The notes under the pieces: generated by a model | What the model saw: the letters and a program-made list of their open reading frames with translations, nothing else | What the model was told of the DNA's origin: nothing | The model's database searches: none | Translations under genes and position numbers: made by a program | NCBI GenBank assembly: GCA_963833055.1 | Contig: CAWHWM010000004.1 | Coordinates: 253,460 to 317,459 of the forward strand | Length of the DNA stretch: 64,000 nt | Direction of reading: 5' to 3' | From: Candidatus Dormiibacterota bacterium | Lineage (GTDB): Bacteria > Chloroflexota > Dormibacteria > Aeolococcales > Aeolococcaceae | Shown here: one piece after another, positions 15,059-37,422 of the stretch | Layout: each line of letters begins with the position of its first letter | Position numbering within the stretch: position 1 is the first letter of the stretch

Positions 15059-17156
15059 GTGACCGAGACAAGCTTTCCCCGACAGCAGGCACGCACGCGG
15101 CGTTTCAGCCTCGGCGTCCCACGTGATTTCGTCGTCACCCCGGACGGGCGCAGGGTCCTGTTCCTGCGCACGCAGAGCGGTACCGACGCATCGACATGCC
15201 TCTGGCACTTCGACGTCGACACAGGCAGCGAGCACCTGGTCGTCGATCCTTCGGCATTGGCGGGCGAGGACGGAGCCGAGGTGCCGGCCGAGGAGCGGAT
15301 GCGCCGGGAGCGGGCGCGTGAATCCTCAGGCGGGATCGTTCGGTTCTCCACCAACCAGGAGGGCACACGGGCAGCCTTCGACCTGACGGGGCGGATCTAC
15401 GTCGCCGATCTCACCACAGGAAGGACGGCCGAGCTGCCGGCGAGCGGACGGGCGATCGATCCCCGCATCGATCCCACGGGAACACACGTCGCATACGTGG
15501 AGAGCGGAGCCCTGCACGTCGTGCCGACCGACGGTGGTCGCGGTCGCGTGCTGGCAACTCCGGAGAACGACGACGTGACGTATGGCCTTGCCGAATTCGT
15601 TGCGGCGGAGGAGATGGGCCGGCAGAGCGGGTACTGGTGGTCTCCGGACGGGTCGCAACTGCTCGTCGCGCGCGTCGACGTTGCGCGTGTGCAGCGCTGG
15701 TACATCGCCGATCCCGCCAACCCGGACAGGCCGCCGGTGGCGGTCGCATACCCCGCAGCGGGAACGGACAACGCTGACGTCACCCTGCACCTCGTCAACC
15801 TCGACGGCACGTATCGAGCAGAGGTGACGTGGGACCGCGCGACCTACGAGTACGTCGTGACTGTCGACTGGTCCGAGCACGGGTTGCTCGTTGTCGTCCA
15901 GACCCGTGATCAACGCACGATGCGCATCCTCGAGGTCGACACGGCGTCCGGCGCCACCTCTGTCTTTCGCGAGGATACGGATGCGGATTGGGTCGACATC
16001 GTCGGCGGTGTGCCCGAGAGGATGGGCGACGGAACGCTCGTCTGGACCGTGGATCGCGACGGAGCCAAACGCCTGCTCATCGGCGACGCGGTGGTGACGG
16101 CAACTGATCTCCAGGTGCGCGACGTCGTGGGCGTTGACGGGGACGTGGTCACCTTCCGAGCGTCATCGACGCCGACGGAGGTTGGCGTGTACACGTGGTC
16201 TCGCGCAGGCGGTGTCGAGCAGATGCTGCCTGCGGATGTCCGGCCAGGCGTCTGGCGCGCACGGCGCGCGGGTGGCACGACAGTGCTTGCAACACGCGAC
16301 CTTCAGCACACCGGTCTGCATGTGTCCGTCCATCGCGACGGCCGTCAAGCCGGTGTGATCGAGTCGCTGGCGGCGAGTCCATCGATCTCGCTCAACGTGC
16401 GCCTGCAGACCGTCGGTGAGCGCGACCTGCAGGTGGCAATTCTCCTGCCACACGGCTACGAGCCCGGGAGCGGCAAGCTGCCCGTGCTGCTCGACCCGTA
16501 CGGTGGTCCTGCTCATCAACGGGTGATGGCGTCGGCGAGCGGGTTCCTCGAGTTCGCAATGGTTCGCCGATCAGGGATTCGCGGTGCTCGTGGTCGATGG
16601 CCGTGGAACGCCGGGACGCGGGCCTGCATGGGATCGGTCGATCCGAGGGGACTTCGCTGCCCCCGTTCTCGACGATCAGGTCGATGCCCTGCACGCGGCC
16701 GCAGCACTCTGGCCGGACTTCGATCTCACTCGCGTTGCCATCCGCGGATGGTCATTCGGCGGCTTTCTCGCCGGGCTCGCGGCGATCCGGCGTCCAGACG
16801 TTTTCCACGTGGCGGTCGCCGGCGCTCCCGTCACCGACGATCACCTGTACGACACGCATTACACCGAGCGCTACCTCGGGCATCCGGATCAGGAGCCTGC
16901 CAACTACGCGGCAGTGTCGCTCGTCGACGATGCCGCGCGGCTCACGCGCCCGCTCATGCTCATCCACGGGCTCAGCGACGACAACGTCGTCGTCGCGCAC
17001 ACCTTGCGTTTGTCCGCAGCGCTGCTCGCTGCTGGTCGTGAACACGTCGTCCTCCCACTGACGGGCGCGACGCACATGGCGAATGACGAGGCGGTTGCGG
17101 AGAATCTCCTGCTCCTGGAGCTGGAATTCATCCGGCGCGCGCTCGGCACGAGCTGA
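15059..17156 (+). CDS. S9 family dipeptidyl peptidase IV-like, +1 frameshift near 16553
   Basis: DPP-IV propeller region (GYWWSPDG); catalytic GWSFGG, DDNV and THM in the second frame. Confidence 0.9.
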
Positions 17157-17166
17157 GGCACGCGAC

Positions 17167-18018
17167 TCAGGGGATCGCGATCATCGCGATGGCAACCACG
17201 GCAAGCAGGGCCCCGGCTGTCTGCAATGTCGTCATGCGCTCGTGGGTGAAGATCCGCGCACACAGCACGGTGAACGCGGGGTAGAACGAGGTCAGCAGCG
17301 CGCTCACCGAGAGCAATCCCGTGTGCGTGGCGTACAGGTACAGGATCACGCCGGTGCCGTCGAACACACCGCCGATGGCGATGATGCGCAGCGCACTGCG
17401 GCGGATCACCGGTGAGGTACCGGTCACCAATGCCGTGACGAGCGACGCGGCGGCCGAGCCGAACCTGCCGCTCACGAAGGCAGTGACCCCTGCGTGGCTC
17501 GCGTCGTGGAAGAGGATGAAGAACACGCCGAATGCGACCCCGGCGAAGAGTGCGAGGACGACGCCGAGACGGGCGTTGGCGGCGACGTCCCTGCTCGGCC
17601 CGTTGATGAGCACCAGCGCGCAGAGCCCGACGACGATGCCGCCCACCTGCCACACCTCGAGGTGGTCCCCACCGATCAAGCCCACCGTGACCGGCAGCGC
17701 AGCGGCGACGAACCCGGTGATGGGCGCGACGATGCCGATCAGGTTGAGCGACATGGCGCGATAGAAGGCGACCAGCCCGAAGCCTCCGATCACCCCGCCG
17801 CCGAACGCCTCGATGGCGGCTTGCGCACTCCATCCGTGGGGCAGCAGCAGAAACGCCAGCGGGAGCGTCACCAGCCCGACCGATTCGACAGCGATCGCGA
17901 CGCTCGGCGCGCTGCTCCGCCGTCCAGCGAAGCCTCCCGTGAAGTCGGCGATGCCGAGGGTCACCGCCGAGGCCATGGCGGAGAGTGGCGAGACGGGAAG
18001 ACTCATGGCCGCGGTCAC
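17167..18018 (-). CDS. EamA/DMT family transporter
   Basis: GIADFTGG, FYRAMS...VAPIT, two 5-TM repeats, LLTSFYPAFTV. Confidence 0.85.
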   Translation of the reverse strand: MTAAMSLPVSPLSAMASAVTLGIADFTGGFAGRRSSAPSVAIAVESVGLVTLPLAFLLLPHGWSAQAAIEAFGGGVIGGFGLVAFYRAMSLNLIGIVAPITGFVAAALPVTVGLIGGDHLEVWQVGGIVVGLCALVLINGPSRDVAANARLGVVLALFAGVAFGVFFILFHDASHAGVTAFVSGRFGSAAASLVTALVTGTSPVIRRSALRIIAIGGVFDGTGVILYLYATHTGLLSVSALLTSFYPAFTVLCARIFTHERMTTLQTAGALLAVVAIAMIAIP

Positions 18019-18066
18019 GGTATCCGAGCGGGCGTTCCGCGCAGATCTCGGAGCCGCAGAAGATGG

Positions 18067-20553
18067 TCAGGCGGTGGCGTCCCGCCTGATCATGTCGGGC
18101 TCGGGTCCCAGGGTCACGAGCGAGAGCTGCACCTGGTCGCGTCCGCCGCGTTTGGCCTGGTACATGGCCACGTCGGCGGCCCGGATGAGGTCCTCGAGAC
18201 GTGCCCCCTGGTCGGGAAAGCTGGCGATCCCGATCGACGCGGTGACGTGGTCGATGCCCGTGCATGCAGCGGGTATCGGCACATTGCGCAGGGCTCTGCG
18301 AAGCTCGCCCGCGACCCGGGTGGCGCCCGCCGCGGCAGCGTCGCGGAGCACGAGGACGAACTCCTCGCCGCCAAGGCGGACGGCTGCGTCGCCCGCGCGC
18401 GTGATGCGCCGCAATTCGGCGGCGACACGCTGGAGCACGGCGTCGCCCGCCGCGTGGCCGCCGGTGTCGTTGATCGTCTTGAAGTGATCGAGGTCCACAA
18501 GGATCACGCTCAGCGGCATGTCACGGCGCTTGCTGTCAGCGATCTCGGACTCGCCCGCCTCACGAAGCCAGCGGCTGTTGTACAGACCGGTCAGGCTGTC
18601 CGTGGACGCACGCCTCGCGAGCTCCTGATACAGCTGCGCGTTGTGCCACGCCATCGCGGCCGTGTGTGCGAACAGCGTCGCCGTTTCAAGGTCCTCATCG
18701 GTGAATCGATTGAGGCCCATGCGCCTGCAGTTGAGCATGCCGAGCTTGTGGTCGCCGGCGAGCAGCGGGATGAGCAGCAGCGACTCGTGCTCGAACGGGG
18801 TGTTGGGGACGGCGGCAGCAGCCGGATGCGCGCCTGCATTGCCGAGATTCTGTGGCGTGCCCAGTGCAAACGCCCAGCCATTGACCCCGACCGACAGCGA
18901 GAACACGTCGGCCATGATCTCCGCGGCCTGACGCCCGGTCGCGAACGCGGCGACGAAGCGATGCTGGTTGTGATCCGCCTCGTAGATCGAAAGGTCGTCG
19001 ACCGGCACGACGCGTTGCAACTGTTCAGCGATTGCCGCGAGGATGCGCTGCGGATCGTGCTCAGCCTGCAGTGCCAGCGCTGCACGGCTCAGCGCGTGCG
19101 GCAGGCTCTCCGGTGCGGGCAGCGCCGGGTGCGGGCGCCTGCGAGGTGACTCGTGAACCGGGACGATATCGACGGTTGCCGGGAAGCTCTCGACCCGGCG
19201 TGTCGCGAACCACGAGGCCGGGACCATCGTTGCTCCCTGGACCGCCGGCTCGCCCAGGATCACCGGTTCGCACAGCACGTTGCCCTGACCGAACTGCACC
19301 CCGAGGTCCATGAGGCTCTTGAGGTCTGCCTCGGTCTCCACACCCTCGGCGATGATGCGGGCGTTGATGTGCGTTCCGAACGACAGCAGCGAGACGACGA
19401 GCGCGCGGCGCGAGTCGCTGGAGTGGACGCCACAGATGAGGTCGCGGTCGATCTTGATGAAGTCCGGGCGGACCTCGGCGATCACGAGCATGCTCGCGTG
19501 CCCGGCGCCGGCGTCATCGATCGCGATACGGAACCCCCGGGAGCGCAGGTCGGCGACGACGCGGCGCAGCCGGGCGACGTTGGGAACCGGCACGCGCTCG
19601 CTGATCTCGAGGACGACATGCGCGGGATCGACCCCCGCGTCCTGCGCGAACTGGGCGAGACGCAATGCCGCATTCGGCTGCGCCAAGGTTGGCAGCATCA
19701 CGTTGAGGAACAGCGTCGCCGGCAACGTGTGCGCGCTCCCCTCGAGGCCGGCGCGGATGCACGCCTCATCGAGCTCCTTCTCCATGGACCCACCGGCCGC
19801 GTCGAAGAGCGCGCTCGGCACCTGCGGTCCGGCACCGGGGTTGATGCGGCAGAGCAACTCGTAGCCGAGGGTGACGCCATCGAGCAGCCGGACGATCGGC
19901 TGCATGGCGGGGCGAATACCGCCGGATTCGATCAGCGCACGGACGAGGTCCGGCGTGGTGCCCGTCTCGTCCTCCACCGTCGGATTGGGGCTGCCGGCGC
20001 TCCCGAGGCGCCGCCATGCGGGGCCGACCTGCGCCGCGACCACCTGCAGAAAGGGCAGCGCGTCGGCGCCTCCCGGCTCGCTCCGCCAAGTGATCAGCAC
20101 GGCGAGCAGGTCGTCGCCGCGTTCGACCGGGACTGCGGTGAACGGCCCGGAGCCCAGCTCCAGGCGCAGCGCGGCACGCTCACCTGCCGAAAGGTGCGGG
20201 ACCAGGCTCATGAGTGATGCCGAGAGATCCATGCCGGTCGCGGGCGAACGGTTGACGGCAGCTGCATGGATGAACGGGATGACGCTGGTTCGAAGGTTGA
20301 GGCTCGTGAGCGGCTGTCCGAGGATCGTCTCGATGCGGGCGATCAACTCCGTCTCGATGTGATCGGCGACCAGCCGGACGCGGTCGCCCTCCAGCTCGGC
20401 GAGATAGCTGCGGAATCCGAGGTCGCGGAGGCAGCCGCCGGTGAGCTCGAGCAGTTCGTCGCGCGACTCGGCGCGTGCCAGGCTGCGGCTCAGCCGCGAG
20501 AGCGTTCCCAACGCGCGGCGCGACGAGTACGCGCGCGCCTTCTCCTGTTGCAT
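18067..20553 (-). CDS. GAF-EAL-GAF-GGDEF protein; EAL and GGDEF motifs look intact
   Basis: YELLCR, FLNV, LEISE, IDDAGAG, IKIDR, AEGVET, GQG; RAGD I-site plus RLGGEEF. Start is ATG 20553 or further upstream. Confidence 0.92.
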   Translation of the reverse strand: MQQEKARAYSSRRALGTLSRLSRSLARAESRDELLELTGGCLRDLGFRSYLAELEGDRVRLVADHIETELIARIETILGQPLTSLNLRTSVIPFIHAAAVNRSPATGMDLSASLMSLVPHLSAGERAALRLELGSGPFTAVPVERGDDLLAVLITWRSEPGGADALPFLQVVAAQVGPAWRRLGSAGSPNPTVEDETGTTPDLVRALIESGGIRPAMQPIVRLLDGVTLGYELLCRINPGAGPQVPSALFDAAGGSMEKELDEACIRAGLEGSAHTLPATLFLNVMLPTLAQPNAALRLAQFAQDAGVDPAHVVLEISERVPVPNVARLRRVVADLRSRGFRIAIDDAGAGHASMLVIAEVRPDFIKIDRDLICGVHSSDSRRALVVSLLSFGTHINARIIAEGVETEADLKSLMDLGVQFGQGNVLCEPVILGEPAVQGATMVPASWFATRRVESFPATVDIVPVHESPRRRPHPALPAPESLPHALSRAALALQAEHDPQRILAAIAEQLQRVVPVDDLSIYEADHNQHRFVAAFATGRQAAEIMADVFSLSVGVNGWAFALGTPQNLGNAGAHPAAAAVPNTPFEHESLLLIPLLAGDHKLGMLNCRRMGLNRFTDEDLETATLFAHTAAMAWHNAQLYQELARRASTDSLTGLYNSRWLREAGESEIADSKRRDMPLSVILVDLDHFKTINDTGGHAAGDAVLQRVAAELRRITRAGDAAVRLGGEEFVLVLRDAAAAGATRVAGELRRALRNVPIPAACTGIDHVTASIGIASFPDQGARLEDLIRAADVAMYQAKRGGRDQVQLSLVTLGPEPDMIRRDATA

Positions 20554-20703
20554 TGCAATCGCAGGATCGGATGCGCCGTCAGCGGACCCGATGACGAGGT
20601 TGTCGCAGGGCGACATCAATAGGCGTCCGTGATGGGTGTACGCCGATTGCGGCGCCCCGCGTTACTACCCCGTCACCGCTTGGGATGGCGGTGCGTCGCA
20701 GTG

Positions 20704-20746
20704 GTCTTAAGACAATCTCCCTACCGTCAAAGGGGCACCGTCAAAG
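20704..20746. promoter_or_regulatory. Palindrome plus direct repeats upstream of the secreted peptide gene
   Basis: GTCTTAAGAC palindrome (20704-20713); ACCGTCAAAG at 20723-20732 and 20737-20746, abutting the GAGGAGG RBS. Confidence 0.45.
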
Positions 20747-20758
20747 AGGAGGATCGAC

Positions 20759-20893
20759 ATGGGGAGACTGAACCGCTGGGTCAGGCTGGGGATCGTGGTC
20801 TTCGTCGCCAGTCTCACGTTGGGGACCGCGACGATTGCAGCGCACGCGGCGCCGCTGAACGACACGCCGCAAGCACTGGTGCACGTGCACTAG
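20759..20893 (+). CDS. 44-aa secreted micropeptide precursor (absent from the ORF track)
   Basis: GAGGAGG RBS; MGRLNRWVR-LGIVVFVASLTLGTATIA-AHA|APLNDTPQALVHVH, i.e. a Sec signal peptide plus a 14-aa tail. Confidence 0.75.
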   Translation: MGRLNRWVRLGIVVFVASLTLGTATIAAHAAPLNDTPQALVHVH

Positions 20894-20949
20894 CACCATT
20901 CGGACCAGACGGGGTGTGCCGCTGAACCGCGAGCACCCCAGGTGAGATC

Positions 20950-21000
20950 GGAGCGAGTCGCGGACGCCGCCACCACCGCCGGGTGGTGGCGTCCCGCTCC
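20950..21000 (+). terminator. Strong hairpin after the micropeptide gene
   Basis: GCCACCACC-GCCG-GGTGGTGGC (20969-20990) with outer GGAC/GTCC and GGAGCG/CGCTCC pairs; no U-tract. Confidence 0.55.
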
Positions 21001-21160
21001 TCCGTCAGGAGAGGAACCGTGCAGTTCGTGATCGGTGTCACCGCCGGCAATGTCAGGAGCGCACGTGAAGACGCACAGGCAACCGACACCGATTCGTCTG
21101 ATGCTCGGTGCGAAGGTGTGACGTGGTCGACCGAGGAACGGTGCCGATCGGGAAACCAAT

Positions 21161-23032
21161 GTGGGGGATAGCTTGAAAGTCGCAGTCATGGGCAGTGCCG
21201 CAGCCGACCATGCCGTGAAACCGGCAGGGCCGGGTGTCGCGCTGCAGCCCGTCATCGACCTCATCGACCGCGTCGATCTGGGGTATGAGGCGCTGCCACG
21301 CCCGTCCGACCTGGAAGCACGGCAGGCCATCGCCGCGGCACTGACGCTTGCCCAGCACACCGGTCCCGCGGTGCTCCTCGTCCCCCTGTCTCGTGAAGTG
21401 CTGGCCGCGGCCGACCTCGATCTCACGGCACTCGCCGCCCGCCACGGTGTCAATCCGAGTGAGCTCGCCTGGATGGTCGAGAGCGAGGCGGATACCGACA
21501 TCGATGACGCGGGCCTCTCGCGCCTGCGCGACCTGCGTGAGCTCGGGTTCCTGCTCGCGGTGGACAGGGTGATGTCACCGACCCTCGATCGGCGCCTGAT
21601 CGCCGAGCTCCGGCCGGACTTCGTCTTCCTCGACCCGACTGTCGCGGCACGTCTCCAGGAGAACGAGGTGGCCAAGGCCCATCTCGCCGCGGCTGTCGTG
21701 TTCGTGGCACGGCTCGGCGGCCGGATCGTCGCCCGCGGCATCGACAGCAAGGCCACGGCGTCGGCGATGGCCGACCTCGGCGTCCAGTACGGAGTGGGCC
21801 CGCATCTCGCGCATCCGCTCGTTGTCGACGCCGCGCTTGCCGAGGCCACCGACGAGGTGGTGCCCGTCGCCTGGTTCCAGCGCCGCGAGGTGCGCGTGTT
21901 CCGCGAGCGCGGTGACACGCTGAGCGCACCGATCGAGATGGCACCGCTGACGCTTGCCGGGCCGACCGTGCTCGACGACCGTGGCTTTGCCCGGTTCCTG
22001 GTGGACGCCGCTCGCACGCTGCAGGCGGAGCACGACCCGGATCGAATTCTCGAGATCGCCGCTGACCGCATCGCGCGGTTGATGGCCGTCGACCGGCTCG
22101 CGATCTTCGAGGCCGACTGGGAGCGGCACAAATTCCGGCCGCGGGTGCTCGCGGGCATCGGGACGCAGGGATTCCTCGAGATGGAGGTGTCGCTCAACGA
22201 AGGCATCACCGGGTGGGCATTCGCTCGCGGGCAGCCATACCGGTGCGCCGACACCAACTCGCATCCGGCCGCGTCCACGATCCCGGGCACCGCGCGCGAG
22301 CCGGAGTCACTGCTGGCGATCCCGCTCGTCGCCGGCGATCAGCGCCTCGGCGTGCTCGACGTGTGGCGCGACGGTCTTGACGCCTTCTCCGAGGAGGATC
22401 TCGAGCGGTGCGCGCTGCTCGGTTTCGTCACGGCGGCTGCGTGGAGCAACGCTCACATGTACGGCGAGTTGGAGCGACGCGCGCTGACCGATGCGCTGAC
22501 CGGTCTCTTCAACATCCGCTGGTGGCGCGACATGGGGCCACGCGTCATGGCGCAGAGCCTGCGCACCGGGGCCGGTGTCGGCGTCCTGCTGATGGATCTC
22601 GACCATTTCAAGCAGGTCAACGACAGTGCCGGGCACGCCGCCGGCGACTCGGTGCTGCGCGCCGTCGCGCGCGCCATCCGTCGCGTGGTGCGCGACAGCG
22701 ACTACGCGGTGCGGTACGGCGGCGAGGAATTCCTCATCGTGCTCACCAACTCCACCGTCGAAGGCGCGATGCGTGTCGCACAGGCGCTGCAGGAGGCCAT
22801 CGCGGAGCTTCGGCCACCGGCGTCAGACGTCAAGCGGGTGACGGCCTCGATCGGCGTTGCTGTGTTCCCGGATCACGGCCAGGAGCTCGACGACGTGGTT
22901 GCGGCTGCGGATCACGCGATGTACCAGGCCAAACGCGACGGACGGGATCGCATCGCGGTGGCGCCGATCTCGCTTCGCGAACTGGCGGGCGACGATCCGT
23001 CAGCTGAACCGCTCCGCGGGCCGCTCGACTGA
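21161..23032 (+). CDS. Degenerate-EAL-GAF-GGDEF diguanylate cyclase; start uncertain
   Basis: YEALPR is present but DDFG is replaced by DRVM and EGVE by RGID; RDSD I-site plus RYGGEEF intact. Confidence 0.9.
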   Translation: MGDSLKVAVMGSAAADHAVKPAGPGVALQPVIDLIDRVDLGYEALPRPSDLEARQAIAAALTLAQHTGPAVLLVPLSREVLAAADLDLTALAARHGVNPSELAWMVESEADTDIDDAGLSRLRDLRELGFLLAVDRVMSPTLDRRLIAELRPDFVFLDPTVAARLQENEVAKAHLAAAVVFVARLGGRIVARGIDSKATASAMADLGVQYGVGPHLAHPLVVDAALAEATDEVVPVAWFQRREVRVFRERGDTLSAPIEMAPLTLAGPTVLDDRGFARFLVDAARTLQAEHDPDRILEIAADRIARLMAVDRLAIFEADWERHKFRPRVLAGIGTQGFLEMEVSLNEGITGWAFARGQPYRCADTNSHPAASTIPGTAREPESLLAIPLVAGDQRLGVLDVWRDGLDAFSEEDLERCALLGFVTAAAWSNAHMYGELERRALTDALTGLFNIRWWRDMGPRVMAQSLRTGAGVGVLLMDLDHFKQVNDSAGHAAGDSVLRAVARAIRRVVRDSDYAVRYGGEEFLIVLTNSTVEGAMRVAQALQEAIAELRPPASDVKRVTASIGVAVFPDHGQELDDVVAAADHAMYQAKRDGRDRIAVAPISLRELAGDDPSAEPLRGPLD

Positions 23033-35685: not shown

Positions 35686-37422
35686 ATGGCAGAGAGACCA
35701 GAAGCAATCAACCCGATGGGCCGAGGGCGTCCCACGGTGAGGCGGCGTTCACGACTTGTCGGCATCGGGATGACCCTGGGTTTGAGCGCGGTGCTCTTCG
35801 GGGTCAGCGCCAACACTTCCGTGCAAGCGTCAACCAAAGTTGGGCCGCTGGCACCCGCCAAGACGGGCGAGCTCGACTGCAACGCCTTCAGCCCGGTGCA
35901 GCAGTCCGTGCGGCCGATGACGTGCACGGACATCAAGGGGATTCTCGGAGTCGACAACCAGAACACGTGGGGCGGCAAGTTCTACGACAACGGCCACTAC
36001 ATCGGTCACGACGAACCGGATGCGACGTTCGAGTCCTCGAAGCCTGGCTCCGGGAACGACGTCACCTGGGATGAGACCCTCGGATCCGATCCCAGCGCCG
36101 CTCCAACCGACGCCACGCCCGGAAGCGACGTCTCGCACTGGTTCGAGCTGACGCCGGCGCCCTGGCTTTCCATGGCGCTGTGCGACCCGAACTCGTACCC
36201 CGAGGCGCCGTGCAAGCCGAACTCCGACTCGAACGCACCGAGTGCCACCTCGAACGGCGGCGGCTCGACATTCATGGAGATGCAGCTCTACCCGCCGGGC
36301 GAGCCGCCCTTCGTGGACAGCTCGGGCTGCGACACCACGCACTGGTGTGCCGCGCTCACCATCGACAGCCTCGAGTGCACCGAAGGGTTCGCGACGTGCA
36401 ACGCGAACTGCGAGGAGCCGGTGAACTTCGCGTTCATCCAGAACAACGGTGTGCCGACCGGCGCGCCGAGCCCGCAGGACGCGAACACCGCTACCTTCAC
36501 GCCCAACTCGCACACACTGCTCATGAACCCGGGCGACCAGGTGACGATCCACATGTCGGATCAGCCGGCGCCGGGCGGAGGGAAAGCGTTCGAAGTGGTG
36601 GTTGACGACCTGACGCAGCACACCAGTGGCTGGATGCAGGCGTCAGCGGCGAACGGTTTTGCGAATACCTCCCCGGCCAACTGCAGCGGCACGCCGTTCA
36701 ACTTCCAGCCCGAGTTCAACACCGCGAAGCCGGGCAACATCATTCCGTGGGCGGCGATCCAGACGGACGTGAGCACCGAGTTCGAGACCGGCCACTGGGA
36801 GTCGTGCACAAGTCTGACCAAGCCGGTCAACCCGAATCCGTTCAACTCCGGGGACACAGGTGGCGACTGGAACGAATGCCACGGGCCCTACGAACACAAT
36901 GACGGTGGCGAGGGCGCGGAGCTCGGCGAAGCCGAGTGCTACAAGGCCGGTGACACACATCCTGGATATGACGGTCCAGGGACGTCGACTGCACCCGATC
37001 AGGCAACGGGTTGCCAGGACAACGTGTACCAGAACGGCGACCTCGACTTCGACGGGAGCCCGTACTGGCCGGAGTGGCCGACGGGCACGACCGCAGGGAC
37101 GTATCCATCAGCCTTCGTCGACTGGTTCCCGACGACTGGTGGCGCGCAGTACTCGCGGTTCTTCTTCCAGACGGACATCGCGCTGAGCGAGTCCACCTGC
37201 ACGTCCACCACGCTCAGTGGCTGCACGGTGCCGCCGAAAGGTCCGGGCAACTTCTACCCGTACTGGAGCGAGACCAAGGTGAACGGACAGTGCGTCTTCG
37301 AGTTCGGCAACGTCTCGTCCAAGGTGACGACGTTCGGCAAGGACTCCGAATACGGCAAGAACCAGTTCAAGACACTCGGGTATCCCGAGTTCATCGGCAA
37401 GAGCCACAGCACGTCCTGCTGA
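35686..37422 (+). CDS. Secreted Cys-rich protein of unknown function, 578 aa
   Basis: GAGGAGG RBS; Arg-rich N-region plus hydrophobic stretch; 18 Cys; many Asp/Gly/Pro/Trp residues. Confidence 0.85.
   Translation: MAERPEAINPMGRGRPTVRRRSRLVGIGMTLGLSAVLFGVSANTSVQASTKVGPLAPAKTGELDCNAFSPVQQSVRPMTCTDIKGILGVDNQNTWGGKFYDNGHYIGHDEPDATFESSKPGSGNDVTWDETLGSDPSAAPTDATPGSDVSHWFELTPAPWLSMALCDPNSYPEAPCKPNSDSNAPSATSNGGGSTFMEMQLYPPGEPPFVDSSGCDTTHWCAALTIDSLECTEGFATCNANCEEPVNFAFIQNNGVPTGAPSPQDANTATFTPNSHTLLMNPGDQVTIHMSDQPAPGGGKAFEVVVDDLTQHTSGWMQASAANGFANTSPANCSGTPFNFQPEFNTAKPGNIIPWAAIQTDVSTEFETGHWESCTSLTKPVNPNPFNSGDTGGDWNECHGPYEHNDGGEGAELGEAECYKAGDTHPGYDGPGTSTAPDQATGCQDNVYQNGDLDFDGSPYWPEWPTGTTAGTYPSAFVDWFPTTGGAQYSRFFFQTDIALSESTCTSTTLSGCTVPPKGPGNFYPYWSETKVNGQCVFEFGNVSSKVTTFGKDSEYGKNQFKTLGYPEFIGKSHSTSC

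Follow-up and report, generated by a model that had tools for sequence, protein, structure and literature searches.

A micropeptide gene with a signal-peptide layout kept beside a soluble GAF-EAL-GAF-GGDEF enzyme gene in a genus of Candidatus Dormibacterota

A 64,000-nt stretch of a Candidatus Dormibacterota genome (contig CAWHWM010000004.1, positions 253,460 to 317,459; hereafter the window) carries two genes for cyclic di-GMP (c-di-GMP) enzymes, and between them lies a small open reading frame (sORF) of 44 codons. The locus raises the question of whether this frame is a gene and, if so, to which of its neighbours it belongs. A preliminary description of the DNA had proposed it as a hidden candidate peptide signal wired directly to the two enzymes. 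Our analysis indicates that sORF is almost certainly a gene, that it probably goes with the divergent enzyme gene on its 5' side (UP) and not with the enzyme gene on its 3' side (DN), and that its product may well be an exported peptide. The DNA belongs to a metagenome-assembled genome (MAG), with a G+C content of about 66-68% over the window. The titles of related contigs read Dormibacteria or Dormibacteraeota, and these contigs come from palsa, peat and Danish soils. Candidatus Dormibacterota is an uncultured phylum that is sister to or part of Chloroflexota within Terrabacteria (PMC10608941). All genomes compared were MAGs with an estimated completeness of 61-92%.

An open frame of 44 codons is unremarkable alone in this DNA, in which 119 ORFs of at least 30 aa were counted in 12 kb. 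In a six-frame search, sORF was intact in 24 of the 46 genomes of one Candidatus Dormibacterota genus, with lengths of 43-45 codons and 61-89% identity. The Shine-Dalgarno (SD) sequence, the ATG and the position of the stop codon were conserved in the 24 species, and GAGGAGG or AGGAGG was present with every intact copy and with the paralogues described below. The third codon position was the most variable one (column entropies of 0.43, 0.27 and 0.73 at positions 1, 2 and 3), and the ratio of nonsynonymous to synonymous differences per site (pN/pS, Nei-Gojobori) was 0.39 overall, 0.23 for codons 1-27 and 0.70 for the linker that follows the signal-like part. The codon-position pattern and the overall pN/pS indicate that selection acts on the protein. 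Indels were of +3 or -3 nt only, the G+C content at third codon positions (0.86) was that of real genes here, and the stop codon was TAG, TGA or TAA, so that recoding is not involved. We conclude from these comparisons that sORF is almost certainly a translated gene under purifying selection. The features listed in the preliminary description (a strong ribosome-binding site, a 44-aa ORF with three Arg, an A-H-A site and a strong hairpin) match the sequence. The remark that all frames stop soon is also correct, as the other two frames end by 20925 and 20945.

Two further copies carried a single frameshift. Both were found in long-read MAGs in which UP is present (L018 in genome G011 and L019 in genome G010). 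These frameshifts are likely assembly errors because neighbouring genes are frameshifted as well, DN being split in L019 and UP in other MAGs of the same project. For G011, it is also possible that the copy is a real pseudogene with a replacement, since this genome holds a paralogue beside a PAS-GGDEF-EAL gene. The idea that sORF is the broken N-terminus of DN, with which it shares the frame, was rejected: three in-frame stops separate the two, and DN starts directly with the EAL domain in all species, with its own SD and an alternating TTG or GTG start.

The family is narrow. Public protein collections contained 40 clusters of it, all named 'hypothetical protein' and 38-45 aa in length except for two longer gene calls starting upstream. 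The frame was hidden in part only, as it is already listed as a hypothetical protein in the annotation of several MAGs. The peptide had no match in Pfam or NCBIfam. An exhaustive profile search of 1.84 billion representative proteins returned four clusters only and added two divergent members, and no credible matches outside the genus were found in 161 genomes of the order. The family has no known sequence relative outside this genus-level group. Separately, a 174-residue secreted protein starting MKPIRLSIIAGAAGVALLVAGVEVHA|AVAPSTPIAIVSVH (L020, G008:C1:1764172-1764291) resembled the sORF layout at E=0.05, with a signal, a VHA site, an S/T/P stretch and V-S-V-H. This likeness could be due to chance, or could hint at an origin of the micropeptide from the N-terminus of a larger exported protein.

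The product of sORF reads MGRLNRWVRLGIVVFVASLTLGTATIAAHA|APLNDTPQALVHVH, a signal-like part followed by a 14-residue tail. Basic residues R3, R6 and R9 are followed by a hydrophobic core of residues 10-28, by A28-H29-A30 and by the tail. The 19-residue Kyte-Doolittle maximum was 2.07 here, within a range of 2.07-2.22. Residues M1, R3, W7, G11, V13, A17, S18, L19, L21, G22, T23, A24 and A30 were invariant, and G2, L4, R6, R9, L10 and H42-V43-H44 were invariant or nearly so. An A/V-x-A site was kept in every member: position -1 was Ala in more than 40 sequences (Gly in the distant member P0044), -3 was Ala or Val, and -2 was free (Ser, His or Thr). The cut site would be AHA|AP here, ASA|ST in most species and V-T-G|S-T in P0044. 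By rule, which was how the signal-peptide call was made, the sequence has what is expected of a Sec-type signal peptide cleaved by signal peptidase I (SPase I), namely a positively charged n-region, a hydrophobic h-region, G22 as helix breaker at -9 and small uncharged residues at -3 and -1, and the Sec-type layout described earlier is borne out in this way. A twin-arginine translocation motif was absent, as there is no RR pair (R-L-N-R-W-V-R), and so was a lipobox, as the 44 residues contain no Cys. Apart from c-di-GMP enzymes, the conserved neighbourhood encoded just a permease and an ABC-2 exporter, and none of the modifying-enzyme families expected of a locus for a ribosomally synthesized and post-translationally modified peptide.

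Conservation fell sharply past residue 30. The linker kept its length and not its sequence, with a whole tail of 11-15 residues in all members, and the HVH end persisted although its codons changed synonymously (CAT in place of CAC in L009 and L016; Val as GTC, GTT or GTA in the paralogues). The constraint therefore acts on the HVH peptide, even though GTGCACGTGCAC happens to be a 12-nt palindrome. With VNVH at the end of the most divergent member, and VQVH or VLVH at the end of decaying copies, the general end motif is V-x-V-H-COOH. Binding of metal by the HVH end, offered earlier as an alternative role, is weakened by the same comparison, as the first His is Asn in the distant member and only V-x-V-H is general. 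AlphaFold2 predicted a single helix of residues 2-35, with a predicted local distance difference test score of 91-94 for residues 1-20, and a disordered tail. Export of the product and its cleavage by SPase I after A/V-x-A are rather probable on these sequence features. We favour cleavage over retention, since the -3/-1 pattern, alone among the features, would be superfluous in a membrane anchor. The objection that a mere signal peptide should show less conservation than this N-terminus was dropped, as a control signal peptide, that of the secreted protein at 35716-37419, was similarly conserved in the same genomes (roughly 60-70% by our reading).

The partner of sORF was sought in its pattern of retention and loss. 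UP lay immediately divergent from sORF in all 26 sORF-bearing genomes. The ORF was absent from 16 genomes of the genus, and 15 of these had a locatable DN orthologue with 75-84% identity. In the DN-only genomes UP was deleted between the permease gene and the promoter-like block of sORF; the deletion scars varied by lineage, and one still contained the last codons of UP. No UP orthologue was found elsewhere in 14 ORF-lacking genomes searched, in which the best matches were paralogues of 44-52% identity, versus 85-87% in control genomes. The decay of sORF could be read in the 15 genomes with a DN upstream region. Its remnants were a 31-codon form, in which the core had gained Arg and Gly, frames of 18-22 codons, MVHVH-stop, a 5' stump, or nothing, and the shortest comprised 5-22 codons; hairpins were often missing from the DN-only genomes too. 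The Kyte-Doolittle value of the 31-codon remnants had fallen to 0.6-1.2 in three of four (2.1 in intact copies), and their pN/pS was 0.65. The last feature to vanish was V-x-V-H-stop, which is still present in the 31-aa forms.

The sister genus, in which both the ORF and the palindrome of its promoter-like block are missing, served as the root of a DN tree, on which ORF-lacking genomes fell in five places and the fewest changes required were 5. Four independent contrasts on well-supported branches, or five in all, were concordant (sign test, p=0.125, a test that cannot reach 0.05 with so few pairs). The tree is one of the DN gene, and recombination between species could lower the number of truly independent losses. 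The distant member P0044 (MGRLNRVFRVGLVIVAAAFSVGTATFAVTG|STVATVVHPALVNVH) was divergent from a UP orthologue of 73.5% identity and had the same promoter-like block, and no DN followed it; an unrelated 340-residue protein was encoded in the place of DN. In the same lineage, a gene for a CHASE3-HAMP-GAF-GGDEF membrane sensor (L111, 946-2871) precedes the UP orthologue on the same strand.

The constant presence of UP, the decay of the ORF where UP was lost, the persistence of DN without the ORF and the P0044 pair without DN all indicate that sORF follows UP and not DN, and on this comparative evidence we regard the coupling to UP as likely. UP and sORF thus probably form a two-gene module, the pairing of which has no earlier description known to us. 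The proposal of a candidate peptide signal wired to c-di-GMP enzymes therefore survives in part: the gene is real, it has the signal layout and it is coupled to UP, whereas the coupling to DN, which persists without it, and a co-variation of the tail with the GAF domains do not hold. Distances of the six residues before HVH were compared with distances of the UP and DN domains, and Spearman rho was -0.16 to +0.16. Absence of the ORF from relatives that keep the enzyme pair had been named as evidence that would speak against the proposal; no genome keeps the pair without the ORF, the two frameshifted copies being perhaps assembly errors. A link to the downstream ABC-2 exporter pair was rejected, as this pair is kept in most genomes that lost sORF.

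Upstream of sORF, at a distance of about 45-100 nt, a promoter-like block terminates in the perfect palindrome GGTCTTAAGAC. The block was near-invariant in all 40 genus genomes, including the ORF-less ones. At other loci, two paralogues and the distant P0044 member have kept the GGTCTTAAGACAAT block, the SD and the peptide layout. The paralogues, in G009 (…ASASTGSHEPPPPVHVH) and G011 (…ASASTGPFPPPPPHVH), are 46-52% identical to sORF and retain its R-W motif, and the block and SD accompany both. None of the four non-canonical loci (G009, G011, P0044 and the P0043 type) was followed by a DN-like gene, and the G011 paralogue lies 224 nt behind a gene for a multi-transmembrane PAS-GGDEF-EAL protein. 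We count this neighbour among the evidence for the coupling, as c-di-GMP enzymes make up only about 1% of the genes here by our own estimate (about 34 GGDEF and 22 EAL loci). Because block and SD travel with the paralogues and with P0044 in loci that have no DN, sORF is an autonomous gene with its own promoter-like block, SD and terminator-like hairpin. The block is a putative promoter; a consensus sigma-70 scan gave zero sites in it.

Two hairpins follow the stop codon. The loop motif of hairpin 1 occurred once in the genome, and the idea that it is a genomic repeat was rejected accordingly. Hairpin 2 had a folding energy of -40.5 kcal/mol here and of between -29 and -43 kcal/mol in each of 30 genomes. 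Its apical stem differed in sequence between genomes (GCC..GGC versus GGC..GCC) with the pairing kept, and its GACGCC..GGCGTC core was also found 3' of the G009 paralogue. A scan for U-tract terminators gave zero sites, hairpin 2 having no U tract. The sORF transcript probably ends, or is terminated, at this hairpin. Folded as a single sequence, the whole leader did not surpass shuffled versions (z = -0.25), and an Rfam search of the region 20000-21800 at E up to 10 gave matches at chance level only, none better than E=0.7.

The palindrome was also sought genome-wide. In the 3.39-Mb genome G000, GGTCTTAAGAC occurs in four copies (C4:274163, which is this locus at window 20703-20713, C5:12324, C6:250963 and C6:251003), as compared with about 0.8 expected from base composition by our own estimate. 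One copy precedes a gene for a LuxR-type response regulator, and a 383-codon ORF is preceded by two copies in tandem, spaced by 40 nt. The sequence may be the operator of a regulator.

The best explanation of these data as a whole, to which we give a probability of roughly 0.4, is the following. The sORF product would enter the membrane via the Sec pathway, and cleavage by SPase I would release a peptide of 13-15 residues outside the cell. Only the V-x-V-H (HVH) end of the peptide would be constrained, the remainder serving as a flexible Ser/Thr/Pro spacer. The exported peptide would be a self-made extracellular cue, the state or re-uptake of which is read by UP to set c-di-GMP levels, much as Phr and AimP pro-peptides act on cytoplasmic receptors from adjacent genes. 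For a cue that acts on UP, a step of re-import has to be assumed. Feedback of the exported peptide on UP as a signal is proposed tentatively. Any reading of the peptide by UP would have to be of its invariant end, since the central GAF domain of UP is 98% identical while the tail varies, and this is no pherotype system. A bolder form, in which the peptide ending V-H-V-H is the cognate ligand of the soluble GAF-EAL-GAF-GGDEF enzyme, either after re-import or via a retained helix, with no transcription-factor receptor between, seems unlikely to us at present. GAF domains are known as sensors of small molecules, and the inputs of most GGDEF/EAL enzymes are unknown.

Several observations weigh against the explanation by an exported signal. 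UP is soluble, so that re-import is needed, and no dedicated importer was found. The tail co-varies with no domain of UP or DN and has no pherotype-like specificity. The N-tail and the helix are the best conserved parts of the product, with R-W kept even in the paralogues, and this would suit a functional membrane helix at least equally well. The co-loss of sORF and UP rests on four to five contrasts, and the adjacency of the two genes makes regional decay a partial confound. Finally, of the four non-canonical loci, those of the P0043 type and of the G009 paralogue have no c-di-GMP gene in the DNA at hand.

The first alternative to be weighed is that the product is not cleaved and is a small membrane protein. 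It would form a single N-in/C-out helix, the cytoplasmic N-tail of which (MGRLxRWVRLG) binds UP and tethers or regulates it at the membrane, and the short outer tail with its terminal His residues would report a condition such as pH or a metal. The conservation of the N-tail and helix (W7, R3, G11 and ASLxLGTA, with the pN/pS of 0.23 and the R-W of the paralogues) is as expected from this, and the predicted helix of residues 2-35 is continuous. A membrane helix would explain the coupling to soluble UP, which has an extra N-terminal GAF-like domain, with no need for re-import, and a tail that keeps its length and not its sequence could be a spacer that fixes the distance of the tip. However, small residues at -3 and -1 with a free -2 in all members suit SPase I and have no obvious role in an anchor, and a hydrophobic stretch of about 19 residues with Gly, Ser and Thr is signal-like rather than a strong anchor. 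The N-terminal conservation is not diagnostic either, as an ordinary signal peptide was about as conserved. We consider this alternative a close rival that suits the data nearly as well, though somewhat less probable than the exported signal.

Another alternative turns the direction of control around. The exported peptide would be an effector, such as a surface or matrix peptide or a binder of metal or protons, and its promoter with GGTCTTAAGAC would be under the c-di-GMP pool set by UP; once UP is lost, proper expression would fail and the gene would decay. The co-loss with UP is explained equally well in this way, and the absence of co-variation between tail and enzyme is expected. A palindromic operator-like site with every copy, and in three other places of the genome, would fit a small regulon. 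However, no c-di-GMP-responsive regulator or riboswitch was found (no match in Rfam), the palindrome block is kept before DN after loss of sORF, so that it is not specific to sORF, and no function can be proposed for a 14-mer in which V-x-V-H is the sole fixed part. We regard the output role as improbable.

A cis-acting leader of DN, in which translation of sORF and stalling at V-H-V-H-stop remodel hairpins 1 and 2 to control DN, is very improbable. In favour of it, sORF and DN share a strand, with 280 nt and two conserved hairpins between them, and the base of hairpin 2 sequesters an anti-SD-like CTCCTCC. V-x-V-H-stop is lost last in decaying copies, and the VHVH codons show low synonymous divergence (pS 0.12). 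However, DN is kept in the 15 genomes from which the ORF and often the hairpins are deleted, and sORF occurs without DN in the P0044 lineage and at the paralogous loci. The purifying selection on the hydrophobic N-terminus would be needless for a pure leader, and with 44 residues the product is too short for its signal to exit the tunnel before termination; by ribosome geometry, a chain of this length is still largely within the ribosome when it terminates, and force sensing of the SecM kind is implausible. There is also no Rfam match and no U-tract terminator. The last alternative, a chance ORF in conserved regulatory non-coding DNA, could appeal to the abundance of open frames, to the conserved non-coding blocks nearby and to the palindrome GTGCACGTGCAC at the ORF end, and is hardly credible in view of the three-base periodicity, the pN/pS, the indels in threes, the synonymous HVH codons and a layout kept in paralogues with unrelated flanks.

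The features of the locus are collected in Table 1.

Table 1. Positions of sORF, its parts and its neighbours in the window.
Feature	Position	Strand	Remarks
sORF, 44 codons and TAG (20891-20893)	20759..20893	+	Product MGRLNRWVRLGIVVFVASLTLGTATIAAHAAPLNDTPQALVHVH
Shine-Dalgarno sequence GAGGAGG	20746..20752	+	6 nt ahead of ATG 20759
Codons 1-30, Sec-type signal peptide or transmembrane helix	20759..20848	+	Basic n-region with conserved R-W, hydrophobic core, A/V-x-A
Codons 31-44, tail	20849..20890	+	Variable S/T/P/N/D/Q linker of 9-11 residues, then invariant C-terminal (V/A/L)HVH
UP, GAF-like-EAL-GAF-GGDEF enzyme	18067..20553	-	Pfam matches; GGEEF and RxxD present; divergent from sORF
DN, degenerate-EAL-GAF-GGDEF protein	21173..23032	+	Pfam covers only the second half of EAL
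Promoter-like block GCGTTACTACCCCGTCACCGCTTGGGATGGCG..GCGTCGCAGTGGTCTTAAGACAAT	20659..20716	+	Holds 10-bp perfect palindrome GTCTTAAGAC at 20704-20713
Hairpin 1, GGGG..CCCC stem with invariant loop GCCGCTGAACCGCGAGC	20911..20939	+	Starts 18 nt past the stop
Hairpin 2, GC-rich stem-loop GGAGCGAG..GGACGCCG..CGGCGTCC..CTCCTCC	20950..21003	+	Starts 57 nt past the stop

The ancestral gene order was likely permease(+), UP(-), sORF(+), DN(+) and ABC-2 pair(-). Neither UP nor DN has transmembrane segments, and UP has no membrane or extracytoplasmic part. The N-terminal domain of UP gave a weak GAF match only (E=0.036) and is not found in DN, which begins straight with its EAL domain. The start codon of DN is TTG or GTG depending on the genome and stands behind GGGGGA, its own SD. 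The central GAF domain of UP (window 18712-19128) was about 98% identical over 18 species, an unusually strong constraint for one sensory domain; across the same species, divergence was 22% for the UP N-domain, 9% for EAL, 11% for GGDEF and 13% for the DN GAF domain. In many relatives (L034, L035, L045 and others) a gene for an APC-type amino-acid permease lies between UP and a membrane-protein gene (17167-18018). It was lost in this genome and in about eight relatives, and the left flank of the module (window about 17000-18100) has thus been remodelled repeatedly.

Two further conserved elements were observed on either side of sORF. On the minus strand just 5' of the conserved ATG of UP (20553), a second mini-ORF start is found (window 20554-20616, and equivalents in L001-L027), with 19 codons and the consensus M-x-P-C-D-x-L-V-I-G-S-A-x-G-A-S-D-P. 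It enters the UP coding region out of frame in most genomes and in frame in this window. Its first codons coincide with the inverted repeat (A/T)TGTCGC-AGG-GCGACAT (20600-20616), and since CCC-TGC-GAC is invariant even at third positions, it may be DNA or RNA, and not a peptide, that is constrained here. On the other side, after a poorly conserved spacer (about 21010-21085), the block GACAC(C/A)GATT(C/T)GTC(T/G)GA(T/C)GCTCGGTGC(G/C)AAGGTGTGAC and the stretch from there to the DN start (window 21085-21172) are kept in all 40 genus genomes, even in those that have lost the entire sORF leader. Rfam gave no match to this element. Its substitutions have no three-base periodicity, so that it is non-coding, and a promoter, operator or 5' untranslated region of DN itself is its probable role.

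A micropeptide that is gained, kept and lost with one enzyme is a testable candidate for an input or a membrane adaptor of a GAF-EAL-GAF-GGDEF enzyme. If the bolder form is true, in which the peptide is the cognate ligand of UP, no earlier peptide cue would be known to act on an enzyme that makes or degrades c-di-GMP, and the peptide might also be the first found to bind a GAF domain as a ligand. With this gene, a phylum that has no cultured members gains a well-supported family of small proteins, and the comparison illustrates that patterns of decay can assign a partner to a micro-gene that is annotated as 'hypothetical protein' or not at all.

Among known systems, sORF would take its place as a peptide or mini-protein partner of a signalling protein. 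A partner of this kind dedicated to a soluble GGDEF/EAL enzyme was not found in the literature, and searches for small peptides or proteins partnered with diguanylate cyclases and for c-di-GMP in Dormibacterota returned nothing comparable. The layout resembles that of the RRNPP pro-peptides (Phr of Bacillus, PapR, and AimP or arbitrium of SPbeta-like phages), in which a precursor of about 40-45 aa consists of a Sec signal and a short tail, the constrained residues are at the extreme C-terminus after a variable pro-segment, and the gene lies beside that of a co-occurring cytoplasmic protein. In contrast to these systems, UP is a GAF-like-EAL-GAF-GGDEF protein and not a TPR receptor, the sequences are not similar (nothing was returned by Pfam, NCBIfam and PHROG-independent searches), and the C-terminal motif of sORF is the same in all species, with no diversification alongside a receptor. 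RRNPP cassette tests accordingly gave neither a receptor nor pherotypes. The neighbours have only EAL, GAF and GGDEF domains, with the weak N-terminal GAF match, and the conserved neighbourhood contains no TPR or HTH receptor; the preliminary description was right in that no RRNPP receptor is present.

SecM, MifM, VemP and the leaders of amino-acid operons resemble sORF as small export-signal ORFs before a same-strand gene with conserved hairpins. Unlike these, sORF is too short for its signal to emerge, is preceded by a promoter block of its own and occurs by itself at the loci of its paralogues, and it is separable from DN both ways, DN occurring without the ORF in 15 genomes and the ORF without DN in the P0044 lineage and the paralogues.

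Prli42, which tethers the Listeria stressosome, a soluble cytoplasmic complex (PMC6614362, PMC9840623), and MgrB and SafA, which act on PhoQ, have fewer than 50 residues, one helix, a short basic cytoplasmic N-tail and a larger signalling partner, as sORF would have. They differ from sORF in having no conserved signal-peptidase site, there is no homology, and the partner here would be a c-di-GMP enzyme, the contact of sORF with UP being inferred only. YfiR, which acts on YfiN/TpbB, is similar in that an exported product is encoded beside the c-di-GMP enzyme that it controls. At about 190 residues, YfiR is folded and periplasmic and acts on a membrane-bound cyclase (PMC4887326), whereas the product of sORF would be a 14-mer or a 44-residue helix and its putative partner UP is soluble.

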